From a virus, in the IMG/VR virus record IMGVR_UViG_3300037333_000056, positions 1 to 64,000 of that record: a stretch of 64,000 nucleotides of DNA; one strand, written 5' to 3'. Shown here piece after piece: positions 1,036 through 19,635 of this stretch (its first letter is position 1; the number at the start of each line of letters is the position of its first letter). Made by a program: the position numbers and the translations under genes. The notes under the pieces are model-generated. The model had not been told where the DNA came from and ran no database searches. It saw only the letters and a list, made by a program, of their open reading frames with translations.

Positions 1036-1056
1036 AAATATCTAGAAGGAAATTAA

Positions 1057-1482
1057 ATGATAGAAGCTTCAAAATATTGGGACACACATAAAGATAGTAT
1101 AGAATATTCATACTTTGAAATGGGATTTGAGAAAGCATTACTGGTAATAGAAGATAAAGTAGAGAAAGAAATAATAGCAACATCAAAAACAAATAACGCA
1201 AACTTAGTAAGAACATCACTAATAAAACTACTAAAAAGAGTTAAGTTGAAAATATTAGGAATGCTAGCAGTGCTACTTCGTCCGACAATGGATATTTCAA
1301 ATTTAGCAAGATACAAATCCATTACACACAATAGTAACTGGTACTTTATTGATACGATTAATATACAGAGAACATTTGATAGTGGTAGCATTAACTATAA
1401 ACCAATAGACTTAATTGAGAAAATGTTTTATAAGTATGATACTTATTTATTGAGATTGAGATATAAGAAGGAAACTAAATGA
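1057..1482 (+). CDS. Hypothetical protein
   Basis: AAGGA RBS; ATGA overlap with the Nudix gene. Confidence 0.6.
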   Translation: MIEASKYWDTHKDSIEYSYFEMGFEKALLVIEDKVEKEIIATSKTNNANLVRTSLIKLLKRVKLKILGMLAVLLRPTMDISNLARYKSITHNSNWYFIDTINIQRTFDSGSINYKPIDLIEKMFYKYDTYLLRLRYKKETK

Positions 1483-2069: not shown

Positions 2070-2230
2070 TAAGAGCCCGTGTGGTAGAAATAAGCTATAG
2101 AACATATTGTATGTGGGGAGCAATGAGTAATACCTCACTAAGTAAAAGTACATACCCTAATGGACAAGCTAGATACTGGTTCAGAGAAGGTGGACAAAAT
2201 TACAAAACACTAACATAAAAGGAAAACAAG

Positions 2231-2428
2231 ATGAGCAATAATATAGATGATTTTTGGAATGAAGTAGCAGTACTTCAGACTATTGCAGGTACAGGAATAT
2301 CTGTAAAAACAAAAGAGTACAAAGAATACGAAAATGACGAAAGAACTCTAGGCTCTCTAGTAGAGAATAAGTCCTCGTCAAATCGTACTAAAAAAGAAAA
2401 AAACAAGTGCAATTCTAAGACGCAATAG
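2231..2428 (+). CDS. Hypothetical protein
   Basis: AAGGA RBS, 65 aa. Confidence 0.45.
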   Translation: MSNNIDDFWNEVAVLQTIAGTGISVKTKEYKEYENDERTLGSLVENKSSSNRTKKEKNKCNSKTQ

Positions 2429-2763
2429 AATAGTACGACTATGATAGGCATATCAATAGACACAGGACCACCTAAAATACATAGTAAAAAATGAAATGAA
2501 GTAATGAAAAGAAGTGACACAAGATAAACAAGACGAGAAGCATGAATATATGAAAGAGCATTCGCCAGAGTATACTAAATGAAAGATTGAGGTTGGCAAT
2601 AACAAAAAGAAAATGCGAACGGCAGAAAACAACAAGATATACACTGAAGTCTTAAAAATAATGTTAGATAAAGACAACATGTCTTGTGGCTGACATATGT
2701 GGCTAAATGGAATATCAGCAGTTACAGACTATATAGAGAAGAATTATACAAGAAAGAGTAATA

Positions 2764-4206
2764 ATGAAAAACAGAACACTACTGTCAGGTGACAGCTATA
2801 AATATGGACATCCGTTCTTATTAAAAAAAGATGCAATGTACCAATATAACTATATGGAGGCAAGACATTCAAGCTCATCACATATTATATTTACAGGTAT
2901 GCAGTACTACATTAAAGAATTCTTGATGAAAGTACCAAGCAAGAAGCTAATTAAAAGAGTAGCACGTATGGCTAAAAATCACGGTGTACTATTTGACAAA
3001 AATATGTGGAAGCATATTAATAAACTAGGGTACTATCCTGTAGAGATTAAAGCTATTCCAGAAGGAACTAAAGTGCCAGTTGGTGTACCTGTAGCTACGT
3101 TTACAAATACTGACCCTAGATGTATTGGATTAGTAGGCTTTCTTGAGACTTTATTTATGAAGGTATGGATGCCTACAGCAGTTGCTACGCAGAGTAACGA
3201 AGTTAAACAGATGCTATTAAAATATGGTTCGCCAGAATGGGCTGAGTATGCTTATCACAACTTTGGTTCTCGTAGCACCACATCGTTAGAACATGATATG
3301 ATTGCCGGGTACGCCCACTTGACACAGTTTAAAGGAACTGATAGTTTTTCATCTTTATTCTTTTGTGAAGATTATTATGGACAACCAGACGATTTAGCTG
3401 CAGGGCATTCAGTATTAGCTACAGAGCATTCAATTACGACGATGAATGGTATTGAAGGAGAAGAAGAGTTTGTTTACACAACTCTACTTAATAATCCTAA
3501 AAGTAATATTATTTCATTTGTAGGTGACTCTTATGATATTTACAAGTTTACACAATTTGTAACAAAACCAGAAGGACGTATCCGTAAGTTACTTGAGTCT
3601 AGGGACAATCAAAAGCTAGTTATTAGACCTGATAGTGGAGAACCAATTGAAGTGCTTACTAAAGTTATTACTATTATGAAAGATAATAATTGTTTTGATT
3701 CTGAACTTGGTGGAAAAGCATTATCTACAAGGTATGGACTACTTTGGGGGGATGGAATAACAATTGAAACAATTGAACATATTATGCAATACTTTACTAA
3801 TATTGAATATCAGCAATTTATGTTTAATAGTGCCACAGGTACATTAAAAACTAAGTTCAGAAATATGCTACTACTGGCTGCTGAAAACTTTGTATTTGGT
3901 TCTGGAACAGATCTAATCAACAGTAAAAATAGGGATACACATGGATTTGCAATTAAGTGTTCAGAGATTACGCTAAAAGACGGATCTACTATAGATGTAT
4001 TTAAAGATCCAGTTACGGATAATGGCAAAGCTTCACGTAAAGGTAAAGTTACTACATACTTAGATAGAAACTACAAAGATTATAGGGTAGGACTTGCGAA
4101 TGAGTGCCGGATCGCAGAAGGCGAACATGTAGCACTAGTTAAACTTTTCAAAAATGGAAAACTTTATAACAAAGCAACATTAAACGAGGCAAGAGGAAGA
4201 AGCTAG
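2764..4206 (+). CDS. nadV: Nicotinamide phosphoribosyltransferase (NAMPT)
   Basis: DSYKYGH, NFGSR, F.GTD, ATEHS, DSYD, IRPDSG, WGDGI, FGSG and FKDPVTD motifs. Confidence 0.95.
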   Translation: MKNRTLLSGDSYKYGHPFLLKKDAMYQYNYMEARHSSSSHIIFTGMQYYIKEFLMKVPSKKLIKRVARMAKNHGVLFDKNMWKHINKLGYYPVEIKAIPEGTKVPVGVPVATFTNTDPRCIGLVGFLETLFMKVWMPTAVATQSNEVKQMLLKYGSPEWAEYAYHNFGSRSTTSLEHDMIAGYAHLTQFKGTDSFSSLFFCEDYYGQPDDLAAGHSVLATEHSITTMNGIEGEEEFVYTTLLNNPKSNIISFVGDSYDIYKFTQFVTKPEGRIRKLLESRDNQKLVIRPDSGEPIEVLTKVITIMKDNNCFDSELGGKALSTRYGLLWGDGITIETIEHIMQYFTNIEYQQFMFNSATGTLKTKFRNMLLLAAENFVFGSGTDLINSKNRDTHGFAIKCSEITLKDGSTIDVFKDPVTDNGKASRKGKVTTYLDRNYKDYRVGLANECRIAEGEHVALVKLFKNGKLYNKATLNEARGRS

Positions 4207-4229
4207 TTTTTAGCAGCGAGGATTAAAAG

Positions 4230-4445
4230 ATGACAAAACAGTTTAGAATGTTAATTGACTATATAGAAATATCAAAAACAATAAGAGACGAAGACACATC
4301 TCCGTTTGTTACTTCATTGCGAACATCTCCGAAAGAACATAAATGTTTACTCTATACAGAAGATATGTACATAAATCTATATACAAACGACATATATATA
4401 AATACAGCACTTGATGAAGTAGTTTTTTGGACAAAGTATAAATAA
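4230..4445 (+). CDS. Small MxKQ-family protein
   Basis: MTKQFRMLI...VFWTKYK; GAGGA RBS. Confidence 0.7.
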   Translation: MTKQFRMLIDYIEISKTIRDEDTSPFVTSLRTSPKEHKCLLYTEDMYINLYTNDIYINTALDEVVFWTKYK

Positions 4446-4678
4446 ATAGAGTATAATACATAAACTTATGAAAGGAGATTATCACAATGAACAAAGTTGA
4501 AAATATGATCATGGAAACGAAAATTAATGAGTGGGGCGATATTTAGTTTATTTGGATGGCATGGCTTAATTATTAGTAGCAGCCCTACATGACTTTAAGG
4601 TGTAACTGGAAGGGAATTTGATAGTATCATCCGCAGCCAGTATAAATAAAGAGCAAGGGAAACTATAACTACACATAT

Positions 4679-4759
4679 CATCGTATAGCTCAGTGCATTA
4701 AGAAACGGCAGACTATTAATCTGTTAGTGGCGAAACGTTGCGAACTTCTACGATAGCAA
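4679..4759 (+). pseudogene. Degenerate tRNA-Asn-like element (anticodon ATT)
   Basis: Acceptor ATCGTA/TACGAT, D-arm start TAGCTCAGT, anticodon arm GCAGA-CTATTAA-TCTGT; T-arm broken; ends GCAA rather than NCCA. Confidence 0.5.
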
Positions 4760-4996
4760 ATATGTGTAGCTTTAAATATATTCACGATGCAAGTTGGAAA
4801 TATTCAGCTATACTTCATTAACAAATACTAAACAGAAATATCCTACAGATAGTATAATCAGCATATATATCACGCAATACAATAATAATATAATAGATTG
4901 TACTTTCTATAGGGTATTATTCCCTAATAATTAACGGTTGAGTATACCGAATAAATACTCGTGGATTTTAATTGACTAGCAGGAAAGACTGCTTAA

Positions 4997-5083
4997 AGAA
5001 CCAGCTTACACTTAGCTATCTGAGTCGGATAATAAACTGGTTCTAATTATCTATGTGCATATTTATGTGGATATAGATAATTA
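4997..5083. repeat. Tandem hairpins (AGAACCAG/CTGGTTCT family member followed by a long AT-rich stem-loop)
   Basis: AGAACCAG 4997-5004 / CTGGTTCT 5037-5044; AATTATCTAT...ATAGATAATT immediately after. Confidence 0.6.
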
Positions 5084-5107
5084 ATAGTAAATAAAAAGGA
5101 TACTACA

Positions 5108-5311
5108 ATGTATAAGAATTTAAGTTTAACACATGATAATAGAAAAATATTTTTTTTAAAAGTAACAAGACCAATTTATCTTTGTCATAAATATTTAAGT
5201 ATATGCTGCGACTTTGACAGGAGGATGTATTGTATTCTAAGGGAAGAAACACAAAACGTTATGAAAGAGTGTACAGACGAGATAAAATTATGGACAAAAG
5301 ACGCACAATGA
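5108..5311 (+). CDS. Small MxKQ-like protein (divergent, MYKNL)
   Basis: AAGGA RBS; ends LWTKDAQ; ATGA overlap with the next gene. Confidence 0.6.
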   Translation: MYKNLSLTHDNRKIFFLKVTRPIYLCHKYLSICCDFDRRMYCILREETQNVMKECTDEIKLWTKDAQ

Positions 5312-5532
5312 CAAAACAAATAAATATTAACAATCGTTTAAAAGAGAGGAATAAAAGCAGACTAGGAATATATTATGGAACTGTTAACAAAATATTACAA
5401 ACATATATGTACGACACAATACAAGTACGAATAATGGGAATGTATATTGGGTTTATTAATAGAAAAACAGGTGTTATCTATCGTATTGGAGACAACAATA
5501 ATTTTGACAAAGAAGGAGGATACAATGCATAA
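5308..5532 (+). CDS. Small MxKQ-family protein
   Basis: MTKQININ; start taken at the ATGA overlap rather than the track start 5230. Confidence 0.65.
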   Translation: MTKQININNRLKERNKSRLGIYYGTVNKILQTYMYDTIQVRIMGMYIGFINRKTGVIYRIGDNNNFDKEGGYNA

Positions 5533-5776
5533 CAATAAATATAAAAATTATAAATTCTTTATGAACAATTTTAAGGAAAAAGATACATCAGTAATAACAA
5601 ATATATTTTCTATTCATTTTATTAATAGGAAATGCATAGGTCTGTATGACTATATTACAAATAAAAATAGGATATATAGGTGTCCATATTGTCTAGAACA
5701 GTTATCAGAATATGAGTACGATAGCAATCCAATATATACATACGGATGCTATATGTGTGCAGATAGAAGAAATTAA
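5525..5776 (+). CDS. Zinc-ribbon protein
   Basis: GGAGG RBS; CPYC...CYMC. Confidence 0.55.
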   Translation: MHNNKYKNYKFFMNNFKEKDTSVITNIFSIHFINRKCIGLYDYITNKNRIYRCPYCLEQLSEYEYDSNPIYTYGCYMCADRRN

Positions 5777-5779
5777 TAC

Positions 5780-5968
5780 ATGAAGAAGCAACTATCACTT
5801 AAGTCAAGAACTTATATAGTAGGTGATTCTATACATATTAGGACAACAAAAGTACCATTAAATATGTATAGATCAATTAGAACTGAATTATGCAAATATA
5901 ATTTTTATTTAGCTTCAGAAATTATGTTCACTAAAAATATTAGATTACAACATGTTATAACATTGTGA
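5780..5968 (+). CDS. Small MxKQ-family protein
   Basis: MKKQLSLK. Confidence 0.6.
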   Translation: MKKQLSLKSRTYIVGDSIHIRTTKVPLNMYRSIRTELCKYNFYLASEIMFTKNIRLQHVITL

Positions 5969-6006
5969 TATACTATCGTAAAATATTTACATAAGGACGA
6001 TAACAA

Positions 6007-6198
6007 ATGAGACAATTTAGCTTACTAATAGGAGAGAATAATGACATATACTACATAAAAGATAGAGAAAACAAGATAGTAGATATATTCTACTCAAAAA
6101 ATGAATGCACAAATAAAATACAACAATTAAATAAATCAAAGGAAAACAGTGAAATTAATAAGCAAAGATGGAAGATTCGCCGCAGTAGTGAACAGTAG
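6007..6198 (+). CDS. Small MxKQ-like protein
   Basis: MRQFSLLI; AAGGA RBS; W near the C-terminus. Confidence 0.6.
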   Translation: MRQFSLLIGENNDIYYIKDRENKIVDIFYSKNECTNKIQQLNKSKENSEINKQRWKIRRSSEQ

Positions 6199-6592
6199 AA
6201 AAGGAAAAATTATTGTAAAAAATGGCTTTGTGTCATTTACAAAAGGAAACATTTCTGGTGCAGAAAAAGTAAGACCAGATATTTTAGAGAACTATTTTAA
6301 TGTTCCAGAGAAAGTAGCATCTTGGTAAGATGACGCACTCTGAAATTAAAAATGCAGTATACATGTCAATGTTTGCATATACAACGCACAGGAAGAATAA
6401 ACTATCACTAGATAATTGGTTATATAATAACGAAGTTAGAAGAACCAACAAAATAGCAAAAGAAATTATGATTGCATATAATAAGATGGAATCTGAAAGA
6501 CGATAAAAGGAGAAAGATGGAATACACAATTACAATTACAGCTGACGGTGCTACATTTGTACCGACAAGAAAAAAGTAAATAAGGAATATAT

Positions 6593-7204
6593 ATGAACAT
6601 GCAAGTATTATTATTGTCGATAGGATATATAGTTGCGTCATATTATATATTTAAGAGATACATATTATACGTTAGAGAAGAAGAAAGCTGCGAAGCAGAG
6701 AAGCTTATAGAAAAAGTTAACAAAATAAATAGAGCAAAAAGCGAAATAGAATTCAATAATAATTATGACAAAATAATGGACAAACTTACAGATGGGAATC
6801 ATTCAAGAAATAGCAAATCACAAGATATAGCACAACAAAATGATACAAGAGGCGATACAAAAAAGAAGCAAAAAGAAAGCAAAAAGAAAGCACATAACAA
6901 GAAGAATATAAAGCAACATAGAAAAGTTATACGAAACAGAGATAGACTTAAGCGTAAGCATAGCGAAAAAGCTACTGTATCTAAAGAGCTTAGAGATGCT
7001 ACACTAAGTAGGGATAATTATATGTGCGTGCTTTGCTTTAGCTCCACAAGACTAAACATACATCACAAAACATACAAGAATGTTCCAAACGAAGAGCCTG
7101 AAGACGTAGTAACTCTATGCGAAGAATGCCACACTAACTTGCATAATGATATAGGGTTTCCGCAAAACTATAAAGATAAAGAGAATATATTATATTGGAG
7201 ATAG
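6593..7204 (+). CDS. HNH endonuclease with N-terminal hydrophobic anchor
   Basis: RDNYMCVLC...IHHKTY...TLCEECHTNLH. Confidence 0.8.
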   Translation: MNMQVLLLSIGYIVASYYIFKRYILYVREEESCEAEKLIEKVNKINRAKSEIEFNNNYDKIMDKLTDGNHSRNSKSQDIAQQNDTRGDTKKKQKESKKKAHNKKNIKQHRKVIRNRDRLKRKHSEKATVSKELRDATLSRDNYMCVLCFSSTRLNIHHKTYKNVPNEEPEDVVTLCEECHTNLHNDIGFPQNYKDKENILYWR

Positions 7205-7208
7205 AATG

Positions 7209-7892
7209 TTACCATTCTACTCCGTAGCCATCTAAGCTTTTATCGAGATCCATAATGTTTGAAGCATTAATATTCTTAGATGAATTTATTCCTACTCGCT
7301 TTATTGGTGATGGATTAACTTTCTGAACAGGCATTGTTCTAGTTTTAGCTATATTTGTTTTTTTTACACTAACTTTCGAGCTAAATAGTGTGCCAGCATC
7401 AGATGCTGACTGAACAAGTCTACCTGTATTTCCTGAGATAATACTGTTAACAACAGGCGTATCTCCAATATTAGGAATAATGAGTTTTCCGCCTAGACCA
7501 GTATTTGATCTTGGTCCATATTTTGAATAATCAATATGTTTGTCACTAGACTGTCTACTATTAAGTGGAAGACTCATTCCGTCATTACTGGATAGATATC
7601 CGTCTACAGAACCAGGTGAGACGTAACTATAGTTTCTATTTGCGAATGGCAATGACAGCCCATCTTCTTTAGTTAGATATGTCTGATTATGAACAGTAGG
7701 TTGCTCTATATCAATTAAATCTTCTGGCTTGGCATTAAGATAGCTTGATGAATCTTTTGCATAACTAGATGATGGTGCGTTGTTGCTTGATATGTATTTA
7801 TTGTTTCCAGTCTTTGGATACGAATCTGTAAATATATCATTGATACCTACAGACCTAAATAAGTTAATAACTGATTGATTTGGTTTGTACAT
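7209..7892 (-). CDS. Putative virion/ejection protein
   Basis: Cys-free, S/N-rich; co-oriented with the lysozyme-like gene, opposite to the flanking genes. Confidence 0.5.
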   Translation of the reverse strand: MYKPNQSVINLFRSVGINDIFTDSYPKTGNNKYISSNNAPSSSYAKDSSSYLNAKPEDLIDIEQPTVHNQTYLTKEDGLSLPFANRNYSYVSPGSVDGYLSSNDGMSLPLNSRQSSDKHIDYSKYGPRSNTGLGGKLIIPNIGDTPVVNSIISGNTGRLVQSASDAGTLFSSKVSVKKTNIAKTRTMPVQKVNPSPIKRVGINSSKNINASNIMDLDKSLDGYGVEW

Positions 7893-7923
7893 TTATTTGT
7901 TTCCTTATATTATTATGGTTTAA

Positions 7924-8673
7924 TTAGTTTCCGAATACATACTTAACATTCATTGGCCTGCCTTTGTATCCTTCCCATCTAGCACGAGTCTCCATAAATA
8001 TTTTTTTCTGAGATTGGGACAAATCATTATATCTTAGTTTATCTACATCTATACCTTTTCTTCTGTATTCAGACAATATACTGTCATACATTTTAGTATC
8101 AGTTTGGTATTGCCTGAAAGCTGAAGATATTGGAGTAGAATTATATCTCTTACTTGACATTAAAGAATCCATTGCTTTCCATCCATCATCAGGAGTAGCA
8201 AAATACAATTGAGCTCTATCGCCTTTGTCTCCAGTATTGCTCTTAACAATTGCAGCAGCATTATATAATAGTTTTCCAGACATTCCTGTAATATTTCCAG
8301 GGTTGTTATTATCTGTTGATTTGTTTATTTTACTTCTTTCTCTAATGATTGTTGGTGTACCATTAATAACATGAATTGAACCATTAGATGGTAAATATTC
8401 AATACTGCTATCTACATTATAAAATGAATCGCCACCTAATCCAGGTCCTGTAGATAAAGACATTCTATCTTGAGGTAAAACATCTCTTGCGTGAGCAGGA
8501 ATATCTTGATATGGTATAGTCTCATTTGAATGTATAAGATTTAAATGAGACTTTGGAACAGAGATGCTTGGAACAGTATGTAGGTTGTATCCTCCAAGGC
8601 CAGAAGGATTATCTTTTCTGGAAACATTTCTAGATAAATCAAATCCAGATGTACCTGTAATCTTCAATGGCAT
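7924..8673 (-). CDS. Putative virion-associated lysozyme-like peptidoglycan hydrolase
   Basis: NNNPGNI...FATPDDGWKAM...WEG motif set; GGAG RBS; own TGGTATAAT promoter. Confidence 0.6.
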   Translation of the reverse strand: MPLKITGTSGFDLSRNVSRKDNPSGLGGYNLHTVPSISVPKSHLNLIHSNETIPYQDIPAHARDVLPQDRMSLSTGPGLGGDSFYNVDSSIEYLPSNGSIHVINGTPTIIRERSKINKSTDNNNPGNITGMSGKLLYNAAAIVKSNTGDKGDRAQLYFATPDDGWKAMDSLMSSKRYNSTPISSAFRQYQTDTKMYDSILSEYRRKGIDVDKLRYNDLSQSQKKIFMETRARWEGYKGRPMNVKYVFGN

Positions 8674-8709
8674 ACTTAAATCTCCTATATTATGTGATTT
8701 TATTATGCT

Positions 8710-8718
8710 ATTATACCA
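8710..8718 (-). promoter_or_regulatory. Extended -10 host sigma70-type promoter (TGGTATAAT)
   Basis: Reverse complement of ATTATACCA upstream of the 8673 start. Confidence 0.5.
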
Positions 8719-8740
8719 AACTTAAACAAAAAGGACACAC

Positions 8741-9550
8741 ATGAACAACACAAAAGAAGCATGCAGAGACTATGAGCTAATGCTACTGAATGCAGCAAGA
8801 TATTCAGGAAACAAGAAAAAAGAACAGAAAATATTTTCAGCGTCTATGGTAGGAAACGACTTGCTGCAAAATTATTATAAATATATGTACGGATCTTCTG
8901 ACCAGCAGAAATTCGGAGCAAACACATTTGGTTCAATATATCAACTAGGTGTGGACAAAGCTATTGAGGACTCAGAACTATTCTCAGAAAGATACACTAG
9001 TGCCTTCAGACATCAAGTTACACTATCTAATGGATGGATTATATCTGGAGAGATGGACCAAATAGATAATAAACTAAAGGTAATATTTGATAACAAAGTA
9101 ACAACTGGTTCCAAAATTAAGACACTAAAGAAAGAGGGAAAACATAGTCAATATGCACTACAAATGGCAACGTATCAGTACTTGCTATACGACTACCAAA
9201 AGAATATATTAAACATAGAAGAACCTGATGTCTACTCTGCAGTACTTGCAATTATAGACAAAAAACATACTCTTTTTACAAAGAAAGTTGAATTCGAACA
9301 ACTTACATTTATGGAAATGGATACTTTTGAAATAGATGAAATGAAAACTATACTATTAGATAAAACTAATGAGTTGCAACAATATATTGATTTAGGTCAA
9401 GAACCGGCTCAATGTGATAATCTATTTTTCTTTGGACAAACAGGATCTAGGAAACCATATAGATGCTTACATTTTTGTGACTTCTCATCAAACTGTAAAT
9501 ATTTTGACAAAAGTGGGAAAATGAAAATGAATACGTTAATGGGGCTATAG
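8741..9550 (+). CDS. PD-(D/E)XK Cas4-like exonuclease
   Basis: GEMD...FDNKVT, YALQMATY, C-terminal C...CxxxCxxxxxC. Confidence 0.8.
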   Translation: MNNTKEACRDYELMLLNAARYSGNKKKEQKIFSASMVGNDLLQNYYKYMYGSSDQQKFGANTFGSIYQLGVDKAIEDSELFSERYTSAFRHQVTLSNGWIISGEMDQIDNKLKVIFDNKVTTGSKIKTLKKEGKHSQYALQMATYQYLLYDYQKNILNIEEPDVYSAVLAIIDKKHTLFTKKVEFEQLTFMEMDTFEIDEMKTILLDKTNELQQYIDLGQEPAQCDNLFFFGQTGSRKPYRCLHFCDFSSNCKYFDKSGKMKMNTLMGL

Positions 9551-9582
9551 TTAGATACACAAAAATTATAAGGAGAAAATAC

Positions 9583-9849
9583 ATGCTAAAGCAATTACTT
9601 ATTTTTGAAAAAAGTAAATATGATCTACGTGAGTTCCCACATGCAATTAGCTGTAGTAATGGTCACGAACTACAAATAGAAATATCTGATTATCACAATA
9701 TGTTGCCAGGTGGAGATTATGTGCTATCTAAAAATAAATATCTAAATACAGAAGGAGGATATAGCATTGGGGAAACATATACAATAGATGATGAACTACT
9801 TGCATGTGACTATCAATATTCTGAATTTGAAATATATTGGAGTGAATAA
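9583..9849 (+). CDS. Small MxKQ-family protein
   Basis: MLKQLLIF...CDYQYSEFEIYWSE; AAGGAG RBS. Confidence 0.7.
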   Translation: MLKQLLIFEKSKYDLREFPHAISCSNGHELQIEISDYHNMLPGGDYVLSKNKYLNTEGGYSIGETYTIDDELLACDYQYSEFEIYWSE

Positions 9850-10109
9850 TGAATAAACAGATTAGACTGAATATTAATACACAGTACTCTGCCTATATTT
9901 CGTCTACAAACGGTAACGAAAAGCAATATATTGACAAGTATAAAAATGAATTTAATCTTATTCATGAAAAATTTATAGGACTAGAATATGAGTGGTATGA
10001 ATCAGAAAATACAACAACACGTATAAAAACATTACTTAACTGCTCATATCAACACTCAGAATTTATATTTTATTGGAGAAAAGATGAAAAAGCAATCATG
10101 TTTGACTAA
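9849..10109 (+). CDS. Small MxKQ-family protein
   Basis: MNKQIRLN...CSYQHSEFIFYWRK; paralogue of 9583. Confidence 0.7.
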   Translation: MNKQIRLNINTQYSAYISSTNGNEKQYIDKYKNEFNLIHEKFIGLEYEWYESENTTTRIKTLLNCSYQHSEFIFYWRKDEKAIMFD

Positions 10110-10281
10110 AGAATTTATTGATATAAATAACTATATGGATGGGTTTGAAAATATGGATAATGAACATTATGTTAATCATAAAGCATGTAGATACTGTAGC
10201 GATGAGAAAGACAAGACAATTACGATGATACAAAATAATATTACACCATACAAGAAGGACGATTGGATTAAAAATGGTTAA
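10084..10281 (+). CDS. Small MxKQ-family protein
   Basis: MKKQSCL...ITPYKKDDWIKNG. Confidence 0.7.
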   Translation: MKKQSCLTKEFIDINNYMDGFENMDNEHYVNHKACRYCSDEKDKTITMIQNNITPYKKDDWIKNG

Positions 10282-10461
10282 ACAGTTATCAACATCAAAA
10301 GATGCAGTTGAAATAAGTACTTTTGGAGTAGACAATGAAATGTCAAGAAACACAAGACATAAGGCAGTATATTATATTGGTGATAAAGAAGGTAAATTAT
10401 TAACAATGACAAAACCATTAATTACACCATACAAGAAGGACGATTGGATTAAAAATGGTTA
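10240..10461 (+). repeat. Perfect 41-bp direct repeat at consecutive gene junctions
   Basis: ATTACACCATACAAGAAGGACGATTGGATTAAAAATGGTTA at 10240-10280 and 10421-10461. Confidence 0.95.
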
Positions 10462-10462
10462 G
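10274..10462 (+). CDS. Small MxKQ-family protein
   Basis: MVKQLSTS...ITPYKKDDWIKNG. Confidence 0.7.
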   Translation: MVKQLSTSKDAVEISTFGVDNEMSRNTRHKAVYYIGDKEGKLLTMTKPLITPYKKDDWIKNG

Positions 10463-10658
10463 GCAATTAAATGTAAGCAATAAACATCTAGTAGTTAATA
10501 TAGAACTAGAAGATAGTGGACATATCTACTCAAAGCACAAATACTTAAGCTCTATATTTGAAAAACAAACACTTATGGAATTTGTTTTATGTATCAGTAA
10601 CAAGCTATGCTCTAATAAATATTGGAAAAAAGATATGGAACAAACGCAGAAGCACTAA
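10455..10658 (+). CDS. Small MxKQ-family protein
   Basis: MVRQLNVS...KYWKKD. Confidence 0.7.
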   Translation: MVRQLNVSNKHLVVNIELEDSGHIYSKHKYLSSIFEKQTLMEFVLCISNKLCSNKYWKKDMEQTQKH

Positions 10659-10705
10659 CAACTACATATTATAATATTGTAGCAAACACAATAAAGGAGC
10701 AACGT

Positions 10706-12676
10706 ATGGATTTTAAATTAAGGCAGTATCAAGTAGAAGCTATTGATGCTATAGAGGGGAACATATTGTTCGGAGAAAAGAATATTATACTAAAGGCAAC
10801 TACTTCATTTGGAAAGTCGTCAGTAATAGCAGGACTATGTGAACGCTTCAACGACAAAAGTATTTCTATTATTGTTAATATTGAGCCTCTAATAGACCAA
10901 ATAGCTGTTTTCTTGAAACTACTTAATATAGACTATTCAATACTAAAGGCAGGGCGAGAATCTGAATTTAGAGCGTCATCAAGAGTTCATCTTATCATGT
11001 CTCAAACATTATATGCAAGACTTGATAAGCTAGATATAAAATCTGATATATGTATCATAGATGAACGTCATATAGAGTATGATACAAAAAGAACCGGAGA
11101 TGTGCTTAAACACATAACTCCTGACGTAATCATAGGAATGACTGCTACACCGTATAATCAAGCTGGTTTTGCACTAGCAAATGCAGAAATAGTTGAGACA
11201 GCAGATACTAACTGGTTAACAGAACAAGGGTATTTGTCTAAAGTAAACTACTATGTACCAAGATGGGCAGAAAAAGTTGACTATTCATCTGTTAGCAAGT
11301 CTGGCGTAGACTACAATCTATCATCACTAGACTCAATCATCAATTCAAAATCAAACATTAGCAAAATTGTAAAAGCAATGAACGATATGAAATGCAAAGA
11401 TAAGAAAACGCTAGTGTTTTGTACGACAATAGACCAATGCAACTTAATTGCAGAAGCACTTAGTAAGGACGGATATAGTGCGAAGGCTTATCATTCAGAT
11501 AATTCAAAAAATGAAAATGAATATATACTTGATTCATTCAAGAACAATACTAAATTATTTGCTAATACAAGCGAAAATAAGACACTTTTTGATGAAAACG
11601 AACTATCTGTAGATAAAGACGCAGTTAAGTGCTTAATATCCGTTTCTAAGCTAACTACAGGGTTCTCTGTAAACGATATTGATATTGGAGTATCGCTTAG
11701 ACCTAGTAAGGTGCGTTCGCTTGTAGAGCAGATTATAGGTAGAGTTAGAAGAACGTCAAATTCTTTAGATGAGCTACTATCTAAGTATTCAAATGTTAAA
11801 GGCAAAAAAATTGCATTTGTATGCTCTGCGTACAATGAGAAAACAAAAATTAAAACTCAACTAAAGCAACTTAAAGCATCACATATAGATGTATTTGAAT
11901 ACAAATCAGAACCAGATGAATACGATATAGTAGAGTGCAATGTTAGACCAAATAAGGAATATGGTGAATATTTAGATCTAGCACAAAATATTAACACGCA
12001 TGGTTTTCCTGAAGAAACTTACTATGCACCTGAATTTACTGGCTTTCACACTCAAGATAAGCAAAACCTTGAGGAAGCAACTAAAGACCTAAAAATGGAC
12101 CATCTAATGGCTACAATAGGGTCAGATAAACCAGAGTGCATAACGAGAGATGGATACAATATAAAAATAGAGCAGATAAAGAAAGATTCAACAAAATTAA
12201 CTAATCTAACGATTAGACAACTATCAAACAAACTTGAAGTTGAGATGGATCCTACTACGATTATATCTGTAACTTGTGTGCTGTTTGACAAGATGCATTG
12301 CTCTGGAGACTATGTAGATAAATTTGGGAAACAAGTACGTGGATATACTACTAATAAAGGAAAAGACGTAGTTAATTTTCTTAATCCTAGAAGCATTGGC
12401 TGGATAGCTGAAGACTGGGTAAAACAATTAGAACTAGAAAATGCATTCTATAAGCGAAAATATATTAAGGCACTAAGAACCAGATGCAAAACTCTATTGC
12501 TGCAGAAAGGTTCAATATATGCAATAAAGTATTTCTTACAATTTCTACTAGAAGGAGATGCAGAAGAAAAGAACAGGAACAATAGTGAGGAAGAAGAGGC
12601 TTCATATTCTGTTCAAATAGAAGACAGCAGTGGAAACATAGAAGTACATATAGACGATTGTGATATTCCATTTTAA
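10706..12676 (+). CDS. Superfamily 2 (DExH, ResIII/RadD-like) helicase
   Basis: LRQYQ Q-motif, TSFGKS, IDERH, GMTATP, LTTGFS, QIIGRVRR; AAGGAG RBS before 10706. Confidence 0.9.
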   Translation: MDFKLRQYQVEAIDAIEGNILFGEKNIILKATTSFGKSSVIAGLCERFNDKSISIIVNIEPLIDQIAVFLKLLNIDYSILKAGRESEFRASSRVHLIMSQTLYARLDKLDIKSDICIIDERHIEYDTKRTGDVLKHITPDVIIGMTATPYNQAGFALANAEIVETADTNWLTEQGYLSKVNYYVPRWAEKVDYSSVSKSGVDYNLSSLDSIINSKSNISKIVKAMNDMKCKDKKTLVFCTTIDQCNLIAEALSKDGYSAKAYHSDNSKNENEYILDSFKNNTKLFANTSENKTLFDENELSVDKDAVKCLISVSKLTTGFSVNDIDIGVSLRPSKVRSLVEQIIGRVRRTSNSLDELLSKYSNVKGKKIAFVCSAYNEKTKIKTQLKQLKASHIDVFEYKSEPDEYDIVECNVRPNKEYGEYLDLAQNINTHGFPEETYYAPEFTGFHTQDKQNLEEATKDLKMDHLMATIGSDKPECITRDGYNIKIEQIKKDSTKLTNLTIRQLSNKLEVEMDPTTIISVTCVLFDKMHCSGDYVDKFGKQVRGYTTNKGKDVVNFLNPRSIGWIAEDWVKQLELENAFYKRKYIKALRTRCKTLLLQKGSIYAIKYFLQFLLEGDAEEKNRNNSEEEEASYSVQIEDSSGNIEVHIDDCDIPF

Positions 12677-12695
12677 TATACAAAGGAAAGATACT

Positions 12696-12893
12696 ATGGT
12701 AAAACAATTTAGAGTTGTAGGCGATAGAACAAAAATGGGATACTACAATCCAGCACAGATTATGTCTTATCTGCCTATAAAATACACATTCAGCACGGTA
12801 TTGAATAGTGGCTCAAGTTCAAGAAAAATACTGTATATGGATAACAATAATGCTGATGAAAAAACTTTCTGGGAAAAGACGAAATATGTTTAA
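12696..12893 (+). CDS. Small MxKQ-family protein
   Basis: MVKQFRVV..KMGYY...ILYM...DEKTFWEK. Confidence 0.7.
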   Translation: MVKQFRVVGDRTKMGYYNPAQIMSYLPIKYTFSTVLNSGSSSRKILYMDNNNADEKTFWEKTKYV

Positions 12894-13140
12894 GCAATCT
12901 AAAATGATAAGTAATGGAGCTAAAATGGGATACTACTATCCATCTATCGATCCATTTTGTGATTCATCTACTGCTGTAGACTATATGAACATAAAATTTA
13001 TATACAATAAAGGTATAAGATTTGAAGATGGAGGAATATTATATATGGAAAGTGAATGCATATCGTCTACTCACCGTACTGACGAAAAAGCTTTTTGGAT
13101 AAAGAGTAGGAAACACACTATCAATAAAGAATATGTGTAG
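12886..13140 (+). CDS. Small MxKQ-family protein
   Basis: MFKQSKMI..KMGYY...ILYM...DEKAFWIK; paralogue of 12696. Confidence 0.7.
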   Translation: MFKQSKMISNGAKMGYYYPSIDPFCDSSTAVDYMNIKFIYNKGIRFEDGGILYMESECISSTHRTDEKAFWIKSRKHTINKEYV

Positions 13141-13335
13141 CATAGACCGTATTATTTAAGCTAAAACAGTTAAATTAATATGCGTATGAAAACATAAACT
13201 GCTTCTGCGGTTGTGGAGGAGTAGACGTGACACGCATTTTCGAGCAAGCCGAAGGCTGTCGCAGAAAAGCGTATTGCGAAAGCTACGATAGCCACATAAC
13301 GGAGAAGAACAATTGAGCACCAAGAAAGGAATAAT

Positions 13336-13545
13336 ATGTTTAAGCAAATATCTCTAGGGAATGACAAAACAACAATGGGATCCATTTTTAAACGTAAATA
13401 TATATCAATACAATTCAACAATCAGGATAGGCATATTTATGAAGAAAAATTTAGATTAATAGACTTATTCCATACAACAATTGTAAGTTATGGAACAATA
13501 AGTTATTTATTCGATATAAACATATTCCAGAAAGAGATAGCATGA
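13336..13545 (+). CDS. Small MxKQ-family protein
   Basis: MFKQISLG; AAGGA RBS. Confidence 0.65.
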   Translation: MFKQISLGNDKTTMGSIFKRKYISIQFNNQDRHIYEEKFRLIDLFHTTIVSYGTISYLFDINIFQKEIA

Positions 13546-13736
13546 GAAAACAACTAATGATTATTGATGGGTATTGCAACATTGAAGGAATGAATCCTAA
13601 GACTTTAGTATCTACTTTCTCTCAAAGGAGAACGCCAATAAAACTCGATAATCTGCTGTACATGTACAGGCTTATGATAATTCAAGAAAAGATGGTTATG
13701 ATAGGGAAACTTACTATATTTAATAAAGATCAATAG
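13542..13736 (+). CDS. Small MxKQ-family protein
   Basis: MRKQLMII; ATGA overlap. Confidence 0.65.
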   Translation: MRKQLMIIDGYCNIEGMNPKTLVSTFSQRRTPIKLDNLLYMYRLMIIQEKMVMIGKLTIFNKDQ

Positions 13737-13757
13737 TTTCTGGTTCTCATTTGTTAT

Positions 13758-14095
13758 GTAACTATTTGCAGTATCCTTCGGTAGCTGCTGTTTCTCGTTT
13801 TTGAGCTATGGCTATCGCCATACCCTCTGGGCACGCTCTTCAACTGCGATACAGGTCAACCTTGAATACTACAATAGTTACGGACTAATTTTTATAGTAT
13901 TATCTATATAATATATATAGCTCTATATAGAGAAAGTTATAAAAAATAGTACCTAAAATGCTCATAAAGCACGGTGTACTGGGAGTTTGATAAGTTTTAA
14001 ATAATACTCACAGTATGAATATAGAAGTTGAGTAATATATGCAGACTGTGAGTACTTTTATAGCTACAAATTGTATTCAGTATTGAGTATAATTT
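13758..14095. promoter_or_regulatory. Candidate replication origin/operator region
   Basis: Branched structure closed by GTAACTATT/AATAGTTAC; (AT)n tract; 17-bp inverted repeats at 14005-14021 and 14038-14054; third related site 14074-14089 overlapping TATAAT. Confidence 0.5.
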
Positions 14096-14232
14096 TAAGC
14101 TATATGTAATATTAAATTGTATATAATTAGGGATATTAAAAGACACACCATGGTTTTTAGGTTGGCTCCTACCATAGTGCGAAGAAAGTTTTTAATTATG
14201 AACACATCATACAAACACAATGGGAACATAAC

Positions 14233-15111
14233 ATGACTGAATTATACAATGAACACAATGAAATAGAGCTTATCTCAGAGACAACTTTAACATCAGATAG
14301 CGGACTTGCTATAGCAAAAATAGAATCAACAACTTTACAAAGAATAAAAAAAGGAAAAAGAGCAATGATGACACCAATGATAGCAAAATACGCAGTTAAA
14401 GGAGTAATAAATAGCAACAAATTTATAGGAGAAAAAGGGCTTAAAGAAATAATGAATAAGTATGATAGCTCCGCATTTAACGTTTTTATAGAGGAAACTA
14501 TATGTGGACTAATGAATGATTACGGATGTATAATTTCTGATAGTTCAGTTACGAAACTCATATATAGTAAAGCTAAAGTATCTAAAAGCTCTTTTGATAG
14601 ATACATGAAGCTATTACGGGACAATAATGTGATTCGTAAGGTGAATAATAAGCTTATAGTGATTAACCCATATCAGCTATACAAAAATTGTACGATTTCA
14701 GGAGAACATCTATGGCAACTTCAGGCTAACTGGGAACTAGAGAAGGTAATGACACACTGGTTCGAGATAGATGACGAAGCAAGACTTGATGTGCTACGAT
14801 CTAAAGCAGAGCTTGATAAGGCTTGGGCAGAAGAAAAGCTAGAAAAGATTAAGAAGAGTAATGCAGAGGTTGCATCTATCTATGAAGAACCGGAGAAGTA
14901 TGCTACAGCTATAGAGGCTTTTACAGATTATAATGTAGAGAAAGGATTAATAGTTACAACTTTTGCAGACTATCTTAGTGATGACACTGGTTCTAGACAC
15001 TTTAGATCGTGGTATTTAAGCGAAAAAAATACTACTCATAGGCCAAAGCTACAATATGACTATAAAGACCGTAGAGCGTATGCTGATGCGTTTATAGAGA
15101 TATCGAAATGA
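14233..15111 (+). CDS. wHTH DNA-binding protein, plasmid RepL-like
   Basis: VSKSSFDRYMKLLRDNNVIRK...IVINPY pattern typical of RepL-type wHTH. Confidence 0.5.
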   Translation: MTELYNEHNEIELISETTLTSDSGLAIAKIESTTLQRIKKGKRAMMTPMIAKYAVKGVINSNKFIGEKGLKEIMNKYDSSAFNVFIEETICGLMNDYGCIISDSSVTKLIYSKAKVSKSSFDRYMKLLRDNNVIRKVNNKLIVINPYQLYKNCTISGEHLWQLQANWELEKVMTHWFEIDDEARLDVLRSKAELDKAWAEEKLEKIKKSNAEVASIYEEPEKYATAIEAFTDYNVEKGLIVTTFADYLSDDTGSRHFRSWYLSEKNTTHRPKLQYDYKDRRAYADAFIEISK

Positions 15112-15305
15112 TAAAGCAACTAATTATATTAGCAGAAAGAAAAAAAAGAATAAAAGGAATATATAGCTTCAATATAAAATATATTGATAGAAATAGCATA
15201 AATAGCTTAGGTGCAATATTAACTATGTATGACGACATACACACATCAGATGGTGAATATGAATACCTTGGACAAAAAGGATTTTTTGATAAAAAAAATG
15301 GATAA
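15108..15305 (+). CDS. Small MxKQ-family protein
   Basis: MIKQLIIL..RIKG. Confidence 0.7.
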   Translation: MIKQLIILAERKKRIKGIYSFNIKYIDRNSINSLGAILTMYDDIHTSDGEYEYLGQKGFFDKKNG

Positions 15306-15311
15306 ATTATA

Positions 15312-15497
15312 ATGATAAAGCAACTAAAGATTATAAACATAAATAGTGAAGTGCATAGAATAAAAGGAATGCTTGGTGATATAAATATGAAAATTACACG
15401 AAAAAAGAATGTATTGCCAGCATTAATTGGATCATGCAGCAGTATTGTTACAGCAAACAAGATGTATTGGAACAGAAAATACTGGAATAAAAGGTAA
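15312..15497 (+). CDS. Small MxKQ-family protein
   Basis: MIKQLKII..RIKG...YWNRKYWNKR. Confidence 0.7.
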   Translation: MIKQLKIININSEVHRIKGMLGDINMKITRKKNVLPALIGSCSSIVTANKMYWNRKYWNKR

Positions 15498-15508
15498 AGG
15501 AATAATTT

Positions 15509-15988
15509 ATGAAAAAAAACAACACAACAGAATGGAATAAGGCAATTGAACTATTATCTAATGTAGCAGAATACGAAGCATCAAGCATTGAATATGAGGT
15601 AGCTGACACAACAACAAATTCATGGGAAGAGTTTAAAGAAAAATGTAAAAAAGATGGATATATTACTGTATCTAAAGATGAATGTGATAACTCTATATAC
15701 GATAGCCCTATAGTTAACAGAATGGCACGTGTATGGCACGATAAGTTACATTTGAATCATAACCTTAGTTTTTCATTAGAAGACGAAATAAAGGTAGCTA
15801 AATATCAACAATTAGATATTGATAATTATAGAATGATGCACTTTAGTGAATACTCTCAATCTGTAGTAGATTTAGCAAAAAAAATCATATATATTGATGT
15901 AGCAGAACAACTAAAATACTATTATGAGAATAATGAATATGTTGAGAACCAAAAGGCATTCGTACTTAATATTATATACAATAAGTAG
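15509..15988 (+). CDS. Hypothetical protein
   Basis: AAGGA RBS, 159 aa. Confidence 0.6.
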   Translation: MKKNNTTEWNKAIELLSNVAEYEASSIEYEVADTTTNSWEEFKEKCKKDGYITVSKDECDNSIYDSPIVNRMARVWHDKLHLNHNLSFSLEDEIKVAKYQQLDIDNYRMMHFSEYSQSVVDLAKKIIYIDVAEQLKYYYENNEYVENQKAFVLNIIYNK

Positions 15989-15993
15989 ATACC

Positions 15994-16215
15994 GTGTTAA
16001 AGCAATTCAAGATGGCTGTAGAAAATAATAGCAGAGTATTAGCCGAAGAATTCAGTAGTAACTACTTGGAAAGAAAGTATATATATAGTCCAGTTGTATA
16101 CAAAGAGACAAAGGAGTGCAATAATGTAATTGGGCAATCATTCATAATGCATTCATGCCACGAGTACAATGACTATTCTTCATCTAAATCAGCATGGATA
16201 AAAGGAAATAATTAA
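15994..16215 (+). CDS. Small MxKQ-family protein (GTG start)
   Basis: MLKQFKMA...AWIKGNN. Confidence 0.65.
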   Translation: MLKQFKMAVENNSRVLAEEFSSNYLERKYIYSPVVYKETKECNNVIGQSFIMHSCHEYNDYSSSKSAWIKGNN

Positions 16216-16277
16216 TGACTAAGCAATTAACATTAGTGAAGGATAATAAATACACTAATAATAAAATTGAAAAATAA
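16215..16277 (+). pseudogene. Truncated MxKQ-family ORF (20 aa)
   Basis: MTKQLTLVKDNKYTNNKIEK*; TAATG overlap, AAGGA RBS. Confidence 0.5.
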
Positions 16278-16311
16278 GTTACAAAAAAGCTTTTAAAACA
16301 AGGAGACTAAA

Positions 16312-16629
16312 ATGGAATTAACAGAAAAACAATACGGTAATCTAAATAGAAGATTTATGGAGGCAAAGATGGAATTAGACAAAGCTACAGAAGCATTTAA
16401 TGCAATTAAGGATGAAGTAAAAGATGCAGCATCTGGTTCTGAACTTGAAATGGAAAACGTTACAGTATTCTATTCAAGTAGAACTACAGTGAATTATAAA
16501 AAATTCATTGAGGAAAATAAGCTTAATATTCCAGACGAATATGTAACTATAAAAGATGTTGAGACTGTACGATATGTTAGTCCACAAGAAGAACCTGTTG
16601 GGATGATTAGCATAAATGGAGATGAATAA
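16312..16629 (+). CDS. Hypothetical phage protein
   Basis: AAGGAG RBS; coiled-coil N-terminus. Confidence 0.65.
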   Translation: MELTEKQYGNLNRRFMEAKMELDKATEAFNAIKDEVKDAASGSELEMENVTVFYSSRTTVNYKKFIEENKLNIPDEYVTIKDVETVRYVSPQEEPVGMISINGDE

Positions 16630-16850
16630 TGAGTGATAAAAAAACATTCTCAGTAAAGCTTGAATTTGACAAGGTGCTTACTATGCTTCTAGATGTAGAA
16701 GTTAAAGCAAGCACAAGAGAGAAAGCAATTAGAATTGCAATAGAAAATTACAAGAATAATATGTATGCAGATTCAGACATGTATGAAGCAGATGATGCAT
16801 TTGTTACAATGAATATAAACAGCAGCGACTGGATTGTTGATGAAGAATAG
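16629..16850 (+). CDS. Hypothetical protein
   Basis: TAATG overlap; V(E)VKAS.REKA motif common in small phage proteins. Confidence 0.6.
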   Translation: MSDKKTFSVKLEFDKVLTMLLDVEVKASTREKAIRIAIENYKNNMYADSDMYEADDAFVTMNINSSDWIVDEE

Positions 16851-16852
16851 AT

Positions 16853-17053
16853 ATGTTTACATATAGAGACAGAACTTGGTGCAATGAAAAAACATGTACT
16901 AATACGAAATGCAATAGATTACTTACAGATAAAGAAAAAGCGAAAGCAACAAGAGAATGGACAGGATCGCCTATATATTCTCTTGGAGAGCTTAGAGACA
17001 CAGAACTATGTATTGGATACACAACAAAGGAATACAATGAAAACAATAAATAA
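16853..17053 (+). CDS. Small Cys-rich hypothetical protein
   Basis: YRDRTWC...C...C.R motif. Confidence 0.55.
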   Translation: MFTYRDRTWCNEKTCTNTKCNRLLTDKEKAKATREWTGSPIYSLGELRDTELCIGYTTKEYNENNK

Positions 17054-17927
17054 GAATGGAATAGAATACGAGTTACCAAGCGTTACACTATTGAATGTTG
17101 CTGGATTAGGAATATCTGAATTTGCTGGGAGAACAGCATACAATAGCTTTGACAAATCAGAAAACAGTGCAATAAAAGACCTAGATGTACTATTGACAGA
17201 AAACGAAATTAAAGGCGTAGATTTAGATGTTTCTATTAAGAAAGTAAATGCAGTTGAACATTCAAACTTGCTAGATAGTTTAGCATGGGTGCATCATCAT
17301 CATAGCGTGCTAGAGCAATGTGAGCTCTGGTTCTCAGTAAAAGGTACAAGCAGAGGAGTACTGCAGGAGCATAGCAGGCACAGACATCAGGAGCTTACAG
17401 TCCAATCGACAAGATATACAATGTCATCTGTAATCAATGCGTTTATTGCATCGTACACAAGATACAATAGCACTAGCACAATAACAGCAAAAGGAATGTT
17501 TAATAAACTTGTAATTGAATTAAATATGTTTGTTATTGCAGATAAATATATGATTGAAATAGAGTCAAACTCAATGTATGACAAATTATTGTATCAGCTG
17601 AGAGTATTAGGAGAAGATAAATTTATTGAACTTGCAACATCAAAAAACATGAGGGAAAACGGAAGTCTAGATCTTGAAACTACGATTGATATATTTGATG
17701 CACTTGAGCAATCAAAACAGGTTAGAAATATTGGAGACAACTTCAAACATATAGTAACAGACAACTGGAAGGTTGATATGGTATTTAAGATGAATCTTAG
17801 GTCACTAAAAAACTACTTGACATTACGAGACTCAGGATCAGCTTATTTCCTAATGAAAGAATTAGCTATTGCAATCAAAGAAGCTACTCCTAAAAACTAC
17901 TTAGATTTAATTATTAAACAAAAGTAG
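17037..17927 (+). CDS. thyX: Flavin-dependent thymidylate synthase
   Basis: HHSVLE and SRGVLQEHSRHR...VQSTRY signature, NLRSLKNY; AAGGA RBS before 17037. Confidence 0.92.
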   Translation: MKTINKNGIEYELPSVTLLNVAGLGISEFAGRTAYNSFDKSENSAIKDLDVLLTENEIKGVDLDVSIKKVNAVEHSNLLDSLAWVHHHHSVLEQCELWFSVKGTSRGVLQEHSRHRHQELTVQSTRYTMSSVINAFIASYTRYNSTSTITAKGMFNKLVIELNMFVIADKYMIEIESNSMYDKLLYQLRVLGEDKFIELATSKNMRENGSLDLETTIDIFDALEQSKQVRNIGDNFKHIVTDNWKVDMVFKMNLRSLKNYLTLRDSGSAYFLMKELAIAIKEATPKNYLDLIIKQK

Positions 17928-17936
17928 AAAAATGTT

Positions 17937-18437
17937 ATGTCGTATAATTACATAAGAACAATTAATGAATACTTAGAACAAAAGAAGAAGAAAGGAACTA
18001 CAGCAGGAGGAAGAATGTCGTTCAGCAATGATGTTCTATATTCGTATGACTCAGTACTAGCTATAATTGATAAGAAAAACAATATATTGCTTATTGACAA
18101 CAGTATAAGCAATATATCGAACACATCAAGAAAACACGCAAGGATATTGCTAAGTGAAAATATGGGGCACGAATACTCAGTACTAGCAATAGCGTACATA
18201 AATAACTATAGAGAATCAGCACGTATATTGGGTGATAACATAGAGCACTGCATACAAAAAGCAAATAGAGCAAGAACAATGCATACTAAAGAGAAATGGA
18301 AAGAAAAATCTATTAGCAAATATATGATGTTGAAACTATTATCAAATACTTATTTAGATAAAAGAACAAAAGAGTATAGACTTAAAGATAAAGCATTTAA
18401 ATTGCTATTTGAAAACAATATGCTTACAGTACAATAA
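17937..18437 (+). CDS. Hypothetical protein
   Basis: 166-aa ORF in the operon. Confidence 0.6.
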   Translation: MSYNYIRTINEYLEQKKKKGTTAGGRMSFSNDVLYSYDSVLAIIDKKNNILLIDNSISNISNTSRKHARILLSENMGHEYSVLAIAYINNYRESARILGDNIEHCIQKANRARTMHTKEKWKEKSISKYMMLKLLSNTYLDKRTKEYRLKDKAFKLLFENNMLTVQ

Positions 18438-18449
18438 TAAAGGACAAAT

Positions 18450-19625: not shown

Positions 19626-19635
19626 AGGCAAGATA

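Follow-up and report, generated by a model that had tools for sequence, protein, structure and literature searches.

A lineage-restricted family of small paralogous proteins in the replication arm of a putative N4-like phage

In phage T4, small internal proteins that are otherwise unrelated have a short N-terminal capsid-targeting peptide in common. Similar genes arranged in tandem arrays have been described in the jumbo phages G and 121Q (Hua et al. 2017, PMC5646251), and in the hyperplastic regions of T4-type phages small open reading frames (ORFs) are reportedly gained and lost in a cassette-like manner at promoter early stem-loop (PeSL) flanks (PMC2839356, PMC4122927). The gene "accordions" of poxviruses, with the amplification of K3L, are the subject of two further reports (PMC6115191, PMC9973261). 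Here, we analyzed a 64,000-nucleotide stretch of viral DNA (hereafter the window), which is the first 64 kb of the 73,659-bp IMG/VR record IMGVR_UViG_3300037333_000056, and describe the MxKQ family, a set of 17 small predicted genes and one decayed copy that begin with, or close to, the motif M-x-K-Q. Profile and pairwise comparisons show that they form one lineage-restricted paralogous family of small predicted proteins in the + strand replication (early/middle) arm of a putative N4-like phage. Comparison of their junctions shows, as read from the DNA, that the family turns over through tandem duplication and through recombination, either unequal or at microhomologies, within a conserved junction.

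As in phages G and 121Q, a phage genome has here been enlarged as one of its genes was duplicated repeatedly, the copies lying head to tail, but the MxKQ family has 17 copies in a 74-kb N4-like genome, divided among four chains, and only their termini align. The PeSL regions share with this locus the small variable ORFs in fixed slots between conserved genes and the short conserved flank at which entire ORFs come or go. PeSLs are reportedly non-coding promoter and stem-loop motifs flanking unrelated ORFs, whereas the MxKQ chains have no intergenic space, a coding flank made of last and first codons, and ORFs of a single family. A PeSL system was ruled out by junctions that range from a 26-nt overlap to a 6-nt gap and by the absence of enrichment in sigma-70-like promoters (88 sites vs. 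102 expected) or intrinsic terminators (3 sites vs. 4.9 expected). The poxvirus accordions resemble the MxKQ arrays in the recombination-driven copy-number change of an accessory gene and in the variants found among copies; they are reportedly recent, near-identical, and experimentally linked to host defence, whereas the MxKQ copies are old and diverged. From the T4 internal proteins, the MxKQ proteins differ by the lack of a conserved cleavage site and of an identified prohead protease, by the type of phage, and by a gene location outside the virion module. The protein family is undescribed; duplication arrays and cassette-like turnover as such are already known.

The MxKQ genes and their arrangement

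The original prediction, made from the letters of the window, had listed 15 ORFs beginning with M-x-K-Q, two near-matches, and a truncated copy. All 15 are on the + strand and start as claimed, the one at 15994 with a GTG codon. These canonical members are 61–88 amino acids long and begin M-x-[K/R]-Q-[L/F/I/S]. Both near-matches, MYKNL at 5108 and MRQF at 6007, were found by the family profile and are counted as divergent members, and the ORF at 16215 is a decayed copy. When the 17-sequence profile was compared with the whole 73.7-kb genome, with stop codons read through, it recovered exactly the 17 members and nothing else. They amount to about 3.6 kb, or about 5% of the 74-kb genome, which for one undescribed small-protein family is unusual in a phage of this size class.

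Calculated from the codon usage of this genome, x-[KR]-Q would arise by chance with a probability of about 0.0034 per ORF. The probability of at least 15 MxKQ starts among about 40 small genes is about 4e-27, with about 0.1 such ORFs expected by chance. An unbiased count of residues 3–4 over 453 candidate starts (ORFs of 40–120 codons) also placed KQ at the top (n = 15). The proteins end alike as well. Within the last 16 residues, W-x-[KE] is found in 11 of the 17 members and in none of 119 decoy ORFs, and [FW]-x-K in 15 members and three decoys; the W-x-K-type ending noticed in the prediction holds in this broader form, aromatic-x-K. Trp represents only 0.7% of the residues encoded by the genome, yet it occurs in the C-terminal motif of 11 members. 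Between the two motifs, a segment of 45–70 residues has diverged almost past alignment. The isoelectric points of the members range from 4.5 to 10.6, indicative of diversified surfaces, and they contain zero to five Cys residues without a common Cys pattern.

The members are grouped in four tight chains separated by conserved genes, namely those encoding NAMPT, a PD-(D/E)XK exonuclease, a superfamily 2 (SF2) helicase, a 292-amino-acid protein, and a PHROG 7806 protein. A solitary member (4230–4445, 71 amino acids, MTKQF...FWTKYK) follows the NAMPT gene. The divergent member at 5108–5311 (67 amino acids, MYKNL...LWTKDAQ; 62 bits against the family profile) shares an ATGA overlap with the member at 5308–5532 (74 amino acids, MTKQI...NFDK). 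Further on lie 5780–5968 (62 amino acids, MKKQL...MFTK), recognized by the family profile, and the weakest, divergent member at 6007–6198 (63 amino acids, MRQF...RWKI), which scores 20.5 bits and does not stand out in leave-one-out tests. The genes at 9583–9849 (88 amino acids) and 9849–10109 (86 amino acids) are tandem paralogues; in the second, the W-R-K codons TGGAGAAAA hold the GGAG ribosome-binding site of the next gene, 10084–10281 (65 amino acids). The latter, missing from a related strain, is a tandem paralogue of 10274–10462 (62 amino acids), and 10455–10658 (67 amino acids, MVRQL...YWKK) ends this chain ahead of the helicase gene. Another pair of tandem paralogues occupies 12696–12893 (65 amino acids) and 12886–13140 (84 amino acids). 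The remaining members lie at 13336–13545 (69 amino acids, ...IFQK), 13542–13736 (64 amino acids, ...IFNK), 15108–15305 (65 amino acids, ...FFDK), 15312–15497 (61 amino acids, ...YWNK), and 15994–16215 (73 amino acids, ...AWIK).

The decayed member (16215–16311, + strand) consists of 20 codons (MTKQLTL...), a stop codon, and a C-terminal-like remnant (KKAFKTR) in another frame, in line with the truncated copy that had been predicted. Its remnant still holds the AAGGAG site of gene 16312. The sequence MIKQLNTI at 31310, proposed as a further remnant, is instead the in-frame C-terminus of a 66-amino-acid ORF (31136–31336) and is not clearly a remnant. Within the first chain, a small gene that does not belong to the family (5525–5776) encodes a zinc-ribbon-like CPYC...CYMC pattern and shares its first 8 nt with the end of member 5308.

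Duplication, decay, and strain variation at the junctions

The three best-matching pairs of members are all adjacent (10084/10274, E = 3e-16; 12696/12886, E = 2e-8; 9583/9849, E = 1e-7), and the latter two pairs confirm that neighbors resemble each other in a family whose cores are otherwise hypervariable. In the first pair, a perfect 41-bp repeat on the + strand (10240–10280 and 10421–10461) comprises the last 13 codons (...ITPYKKDDWIKNG) of genes 10084 and 10274 together with the next ATG. The 47 bp just upstream of the repeat are about 55% identical. Identity over 41 bp beside a diverged flank fits a recent recombination or conversion event at the junction.

A 534-nt contig from a sequencing run of another study (X2) matches positions 9684–10079 with five differences (about 99% identity over 396 bases) and resumes at 10255. 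The 175 missing bases remove member 10084 exactly. Because 9849 and 10084 overlap in different frames, 9849 reads on in frame in this contig, to ...YWRKDDWIKNG, and the overlap with the start of 10274 is retained. Both breakpoints fall in the K-D codons that directly follow the Trp motif, with a 2-bp microhomology between them. Copy-number variation in related DNA is represented by this contig, which lacks exactly one member and, though a single contig, is direct evidence for the gain and loss of entire members at the conserved junction.

The genes were predicted to be joined by ATGA or TAATG overlaps. This is correct for three ATGA junctions (at 5308, 13542, and 15108) and two TAATG junctions (at 9849 and 16215); elsewhere, the overlap is 8 nt (10274, 10455, and 12886) or 26 nt (10084), and the other junctions are gaps of 3–6 nt. 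The stop/start overlaps of 1–8 nt point to translational coupling.

Paralogue pairs, the 41-bp repeat, the decayed copy, and the strain variant all agree with the proposal of an expanding and diversifying family lodged in slots between core genes. We consider it highly probable that the MxKQ genes are accessory genes that evolve as a birth-and-death family and keep a conserved junction. They illustrate in a small space how phages create and lose small ORFan genes.

In another run (X3), a backward joint from 10384 to 10225, with 21 letters between, gives a hint of a strain whose 10084/10274 pair is arranged differently or has an additional copy, at a depth of 2.8 that is too low to rely on. Most other read joints had sides of only 20–24 letters at 80% likeness and were taken as spurious.

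Lineage restriction and a second family in related phages

No member matched a PHROGs family at E ≤ 0.01, and Pfam-A gave only scattered single hits (E = 0.006–0.1, one member each), none of them significant, in agreement with the original prediction that no named family covers these proteins. Only this genome's own members were recovered by a word-indexed search of 5.8 billion proteins and by a HMMER profile search of 1.84 billion representatives. Member 15108 found nothing at E ≤ 1 when compared by tblastn with 50,697 phage records; a 4-kb blastn comparison with phage records gave nothing, and a single-protein locus search was likewise empty. Because short, fast-evolving proteins are hard to detect, these negatives indicate restriction and are not proof of uniqueness. 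In the literature, we found no described equivalent in N4-like phages.

Relatives of the helicase share 53–61% identity with it, and the contigs of five of them were read. The two closest (L002 and L004, 57–61% helicase identity) have no M-x-K-Q ORF. They carry ORFs of 52–68 amino acids (L002, 9254–10759; L004, 3508–7680) that start with M-I-N-I-hydrophobic and end with W-x-K. These lie in the slots of the MxKQ genes, after the helicase gene and between the exonuclease and helicase genes, and their W-x-K is also encoded by TGGA..AAA ahead of the next start. The M-I-N-I family therefore resembles the MxKQ family in its slots, similar size, ending, and uniform N-terminus, but the N-terminal motif itself differs. 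Further M-I-N-I members (P0142 and P0144) are found on a short contig, L008, and the family is likewise confined to its own lineage in searches. A more distant relative with a complete 112-kb genome, the sole one in IMG/VR, has neither family. The slots around the helicase gene emerge as hot spots for accessory genes in this group of vent phages.

Between L002 and L004, the orthologues of the M-I-N-I family have ratios of nonsynonymous to synonymous substitution rates (dN/dS) of 0.18–0.38, compared with 0.06–0.10 for the adjoining core genes. By these ratios, the M-I-N-I ORFs are real genes under relaxed constraint, and by analogy the MxKQ genes may also be under selection. Homology between the two families was not detected by hhalign (probability 0.6%), and of four cross-profile settings, three gave no signal and the fourth (p = 0.004) was driven by W-x-K. 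The simplest account of the two families would be an independent expansion from a different founder in each lineage, or a single fast-evolving founder. Their common W-x-K ending could be inherited or imposed by the translational role of the junction.

Two other features of these relatives were observed. The L004 helicase (3677–6637) has 986 amino acids, compared with about 660 in the others, and looks as if it holds an inserted intein; a similar 984-amino-acid protein, P0016, carries the intein domain Pfam PF14890. In the 112-kb relative (L001), a 379-amino-acid ORF (12053–13192) with a signal-peptide-like start and a C-terminal Phe looks, by eye, like an outer-membrane beta-barrel protein.

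Terminal motifs, candidate functions, and phage setting

Base counts were tabulated around 16 of the starts. Beyond the ATG, information is found at positions +7, +8, +10, and +11 and at the second base (T, hydrophobic) of codons 5 and 7. The wobble bases vary, with AAA in six, AAG in nine, and AGG in one case at codon 3, and CAA in 13 and CAG in three cases at codon 4; the genome-wide frequencies are 64% for AAA and 67% for CAA. Upstream of the starts, there is a purine-rich ribosome-binding region and otherwise no conservation. Because the wobble bases vary and the information lies at coding bases, the N-terminal M-x-K-Q-hydrophobic-x-hydrophobic motif is, by its nucleotide pattern, selected as protein.

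At the 3′ end of the genes, 10 of the 11 Trp codons have an A directly behind them (TGGA..AAA, P of about 4e-4), which supplies a GGA(G) ribosome-binding core and an A-rich spacer at 10–20 nt from the following start. It lies 10–11 nt ahead of the next ATG at four junctions and 16–27 nt at four others. Phe replaces Trp in five members, a change of two bases that leaves no GGA, and W-x-K is retained in members without a close downstream gene (4230, 12886, and 10455). These two features speak against a purely nucleic-acid signal, and we read aromatic-x-K as belonging to the protein while also providing the next gene with its ribosome-binding site. Outside the family, 12 of 73 genes have a Trp within their last 12 residues (6.2 expected), a mild excess that may result from TGGA or TGGAG serving as the downstream ribosome-binding site. 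One junction appears to combine three roles: protein ends, ribosome-binding site of the next gene, and recombination point.

We propose that the MxKQ genes encode co-expressed accessory proteins of the replication-phase arm. Their two termini would jointly form a common small scaffold or contact, the variable middles would bind different host molecules in host takeover or counter-defence, and copy number and content would shift with changing hosts. This functional part is tentative and we hold it below even confidence; joined to the birth-and-death evolution of the family in one statement, the whole is an even call. The name "effector library" given to these genes in the original prediction is equally tentative. 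If the proteins do bind host molecules or counter defences, their 17 diverged cores, set in a common frame, would lend themselves to screening as a natural library, and the different N-terminus of the sister lineage could be used to ask directly whether the termini serve structure or act as a signal.

Several results weigh against this proposal. In leave-one-out profile comparisons, with the close paralogue of each member also removed and with 119 decoy ORFs and 100 shuffles of each sequence as controls, 12 of 17 full-length members beat every decoy (Fisher p vs. shuffles 5e-13). Without the first six residues, this fell to 5 of 17 (Fisher p = 2e-3), and for the core alone, without the first six and last eight residues, to 2 of 17 (Fisher p = 0.04). 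A hidden Markov model (HMM) signal beyond the first five residues thus exists through the C-terminal motif, but this additional signal is small. AlphaFold2 gave low-confidence models, with a predicted local distance difference test (pLDDT) score of 50.3 for the 17-row family alignment, too low to show a common fold, and 54.3 for the 11-row alignment of the sister family; the ESM Atlas model was poor (pLDDT 0.35) and gave no usable feature match. A homodimer prediction for member 4230 scored 0.00 with an uncertain fold and was not used as evidence either way. The dN/dS values come from the sister family and not from the MxKQ family, the strain variant is one 534-nt contig at a depth of 5.7, and none of the public runs containing this DNA is on record as RNA. 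Conserved polar K and Q residues at the extreme N-terminus are also unusual for a purely structural role, which leaves room for a recognition function.

An alternative, which we regard as rather unlikely, is that selection keeps the RNA or DNA junction itself, as ribosome-binding site, spacer, start context, and/or recombination handle. The terminal peptides would then be largely its translation and the ORF bodies a weakly selected, fast-turnover filler. The A after the Trp codon agrees with this (20 of 21 cases when the sister family, whose orthologues are not independent, is included), as do the exact spacing of 10–11 nt at four junctions, the indel breakpoints inside the junction, the W-x-K ending common to two families without detectable homology, and the milder Trp excess of non-family genes. 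On the other side, the wobble of the K and Q codons varies about as it does genome-wide, two base changes have turned K into R in one member, and positions 5 and 7 stay hydrophobic. Phe stands for Trp in five members, and the motif stays where no gene follows nearby. The ORFs also remain open for 61–88 codons in DNA of 32% G+C, and dN/dS is below 0.4 in the sister-family orthologues.

It is unlikely that the N-terminal pentapeptide, perhaps with the C-terminal motif, is an address tag read by a common phage or host machine, with the variable rest as cargo. Such a machine could load the proteins into the capsid to be injected together with the virion RNA polymerase, or it could be a chaperone or a degron-recognizing protease. 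Invariant polar K/Q residues at positions 3–4 of otherwise unrelated sequences would fit such a tag, and the uniform M-I-N-I start in the same slots of the sister lineage is what co-evolution with a reader would give. However, residues 8–20 have no conserved position and hence no conserved processing site after the tag, and Glu occurs within residues 9–19 of about 10 of 15 members, close to what chance would give. Known targeting peptides tend to be longer than five residues, the proteins scanned included no protease or other candidate reader, and the genes sit with those of replication, on the other strand from the virion genes. Founder effects in two independent expansions explain lineage-specific N-termini more simply. 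The suggestion in the original prediction of a capsid-targeting or docking tag is accordingly not supported, as no cleavage motif is conserved, no partner was found among the proteins scanned, and the genes lie away from the virion module. Less probable still is the more specific version in which the pentapeptide would be a lineage-specific label and a co-evolving phage factor would deliver the effector set, for example by capsid loading beside the virion RNA polymerase.

Precursors resembling those of ribosomally synthesized and post-translationally modified peptides (RiPPs), with a conserved leader, a hypervariable core, many copies, and one processing enzyme, would also produce tandem runs of many small ORFs that are conserved at their ends and variable in between. 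This is very improbable here: the conserved part has only 5 residues, compared with 20 or more for a leader, the cores show no abundance of Cys, Ser, or Thr, and there is no modifying enzyme, protease, or exporter among the proteins scanned. Unrelated AT-rich ORFs with coincidentally similar starts would account for cores that are nearly unalignable, but the frequency of the N-terminal motif, the independent C-terminal motif, the presence of all members on one strand, where they tile the gaps between genes, and the existence of paralogue pairs make chance or artefact barely credible.

The MxKQ family belongs to an uncultured phage whose record is estimated by CheckV to be 88% complete and whose window has a G+C content of 31–34%. 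The + strand is coding for about the first 38 kb, and the − strand thereafter. In the − arm, a 2800-amino-acid ORF matches PHROG 2206, "virion RNA polymerase", over its C-terminal part only (5e-23), and a major head protein gene (PHROG 1357, 5e-83) is accompanied by further virion genes. Because of the match to a giant virion RNA polymerase, the genome class of about 70–75 kb, and the two opposed gene arms, the genome is, on its gene content, that of an N4-like phage (Schitoviridae). Its source is probably a hydrothermal-vent metagenome, the sole public run containing the entire stretch.

The + arm encodes an NMNAT-like protein, NAMPT, an HNH endonuclease, the PD-(D/E)XK exonuclease, the SF2 helicase, an AAA ATPase, a ribonucleotide reductase, and a primase, as well as a protein that we take to be ThyX from reading its sequence, without a profile scan. 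The cytidylyltransferase-like (NMNAT-like) gene at 60–611 and the nicotinamide phosphoribosyltransferase gene at 2764–4206 suggest a NAD salvage pair. No transfer RNA gene and no Rfam match at E ≤ 0.1 were found in bases 1–20,000. ORF-free gaps of about 660 bp (4446–5107) and about 500 bp (13737–14232) lie ahead of gene chains. Each contains a strong hairpin when folded as single-stranded DNA (5044–5083, z = −4.1; 14005–14054, z = −3.8), and these hairpins may have a regulatory or promoter role of the N4-like kind.

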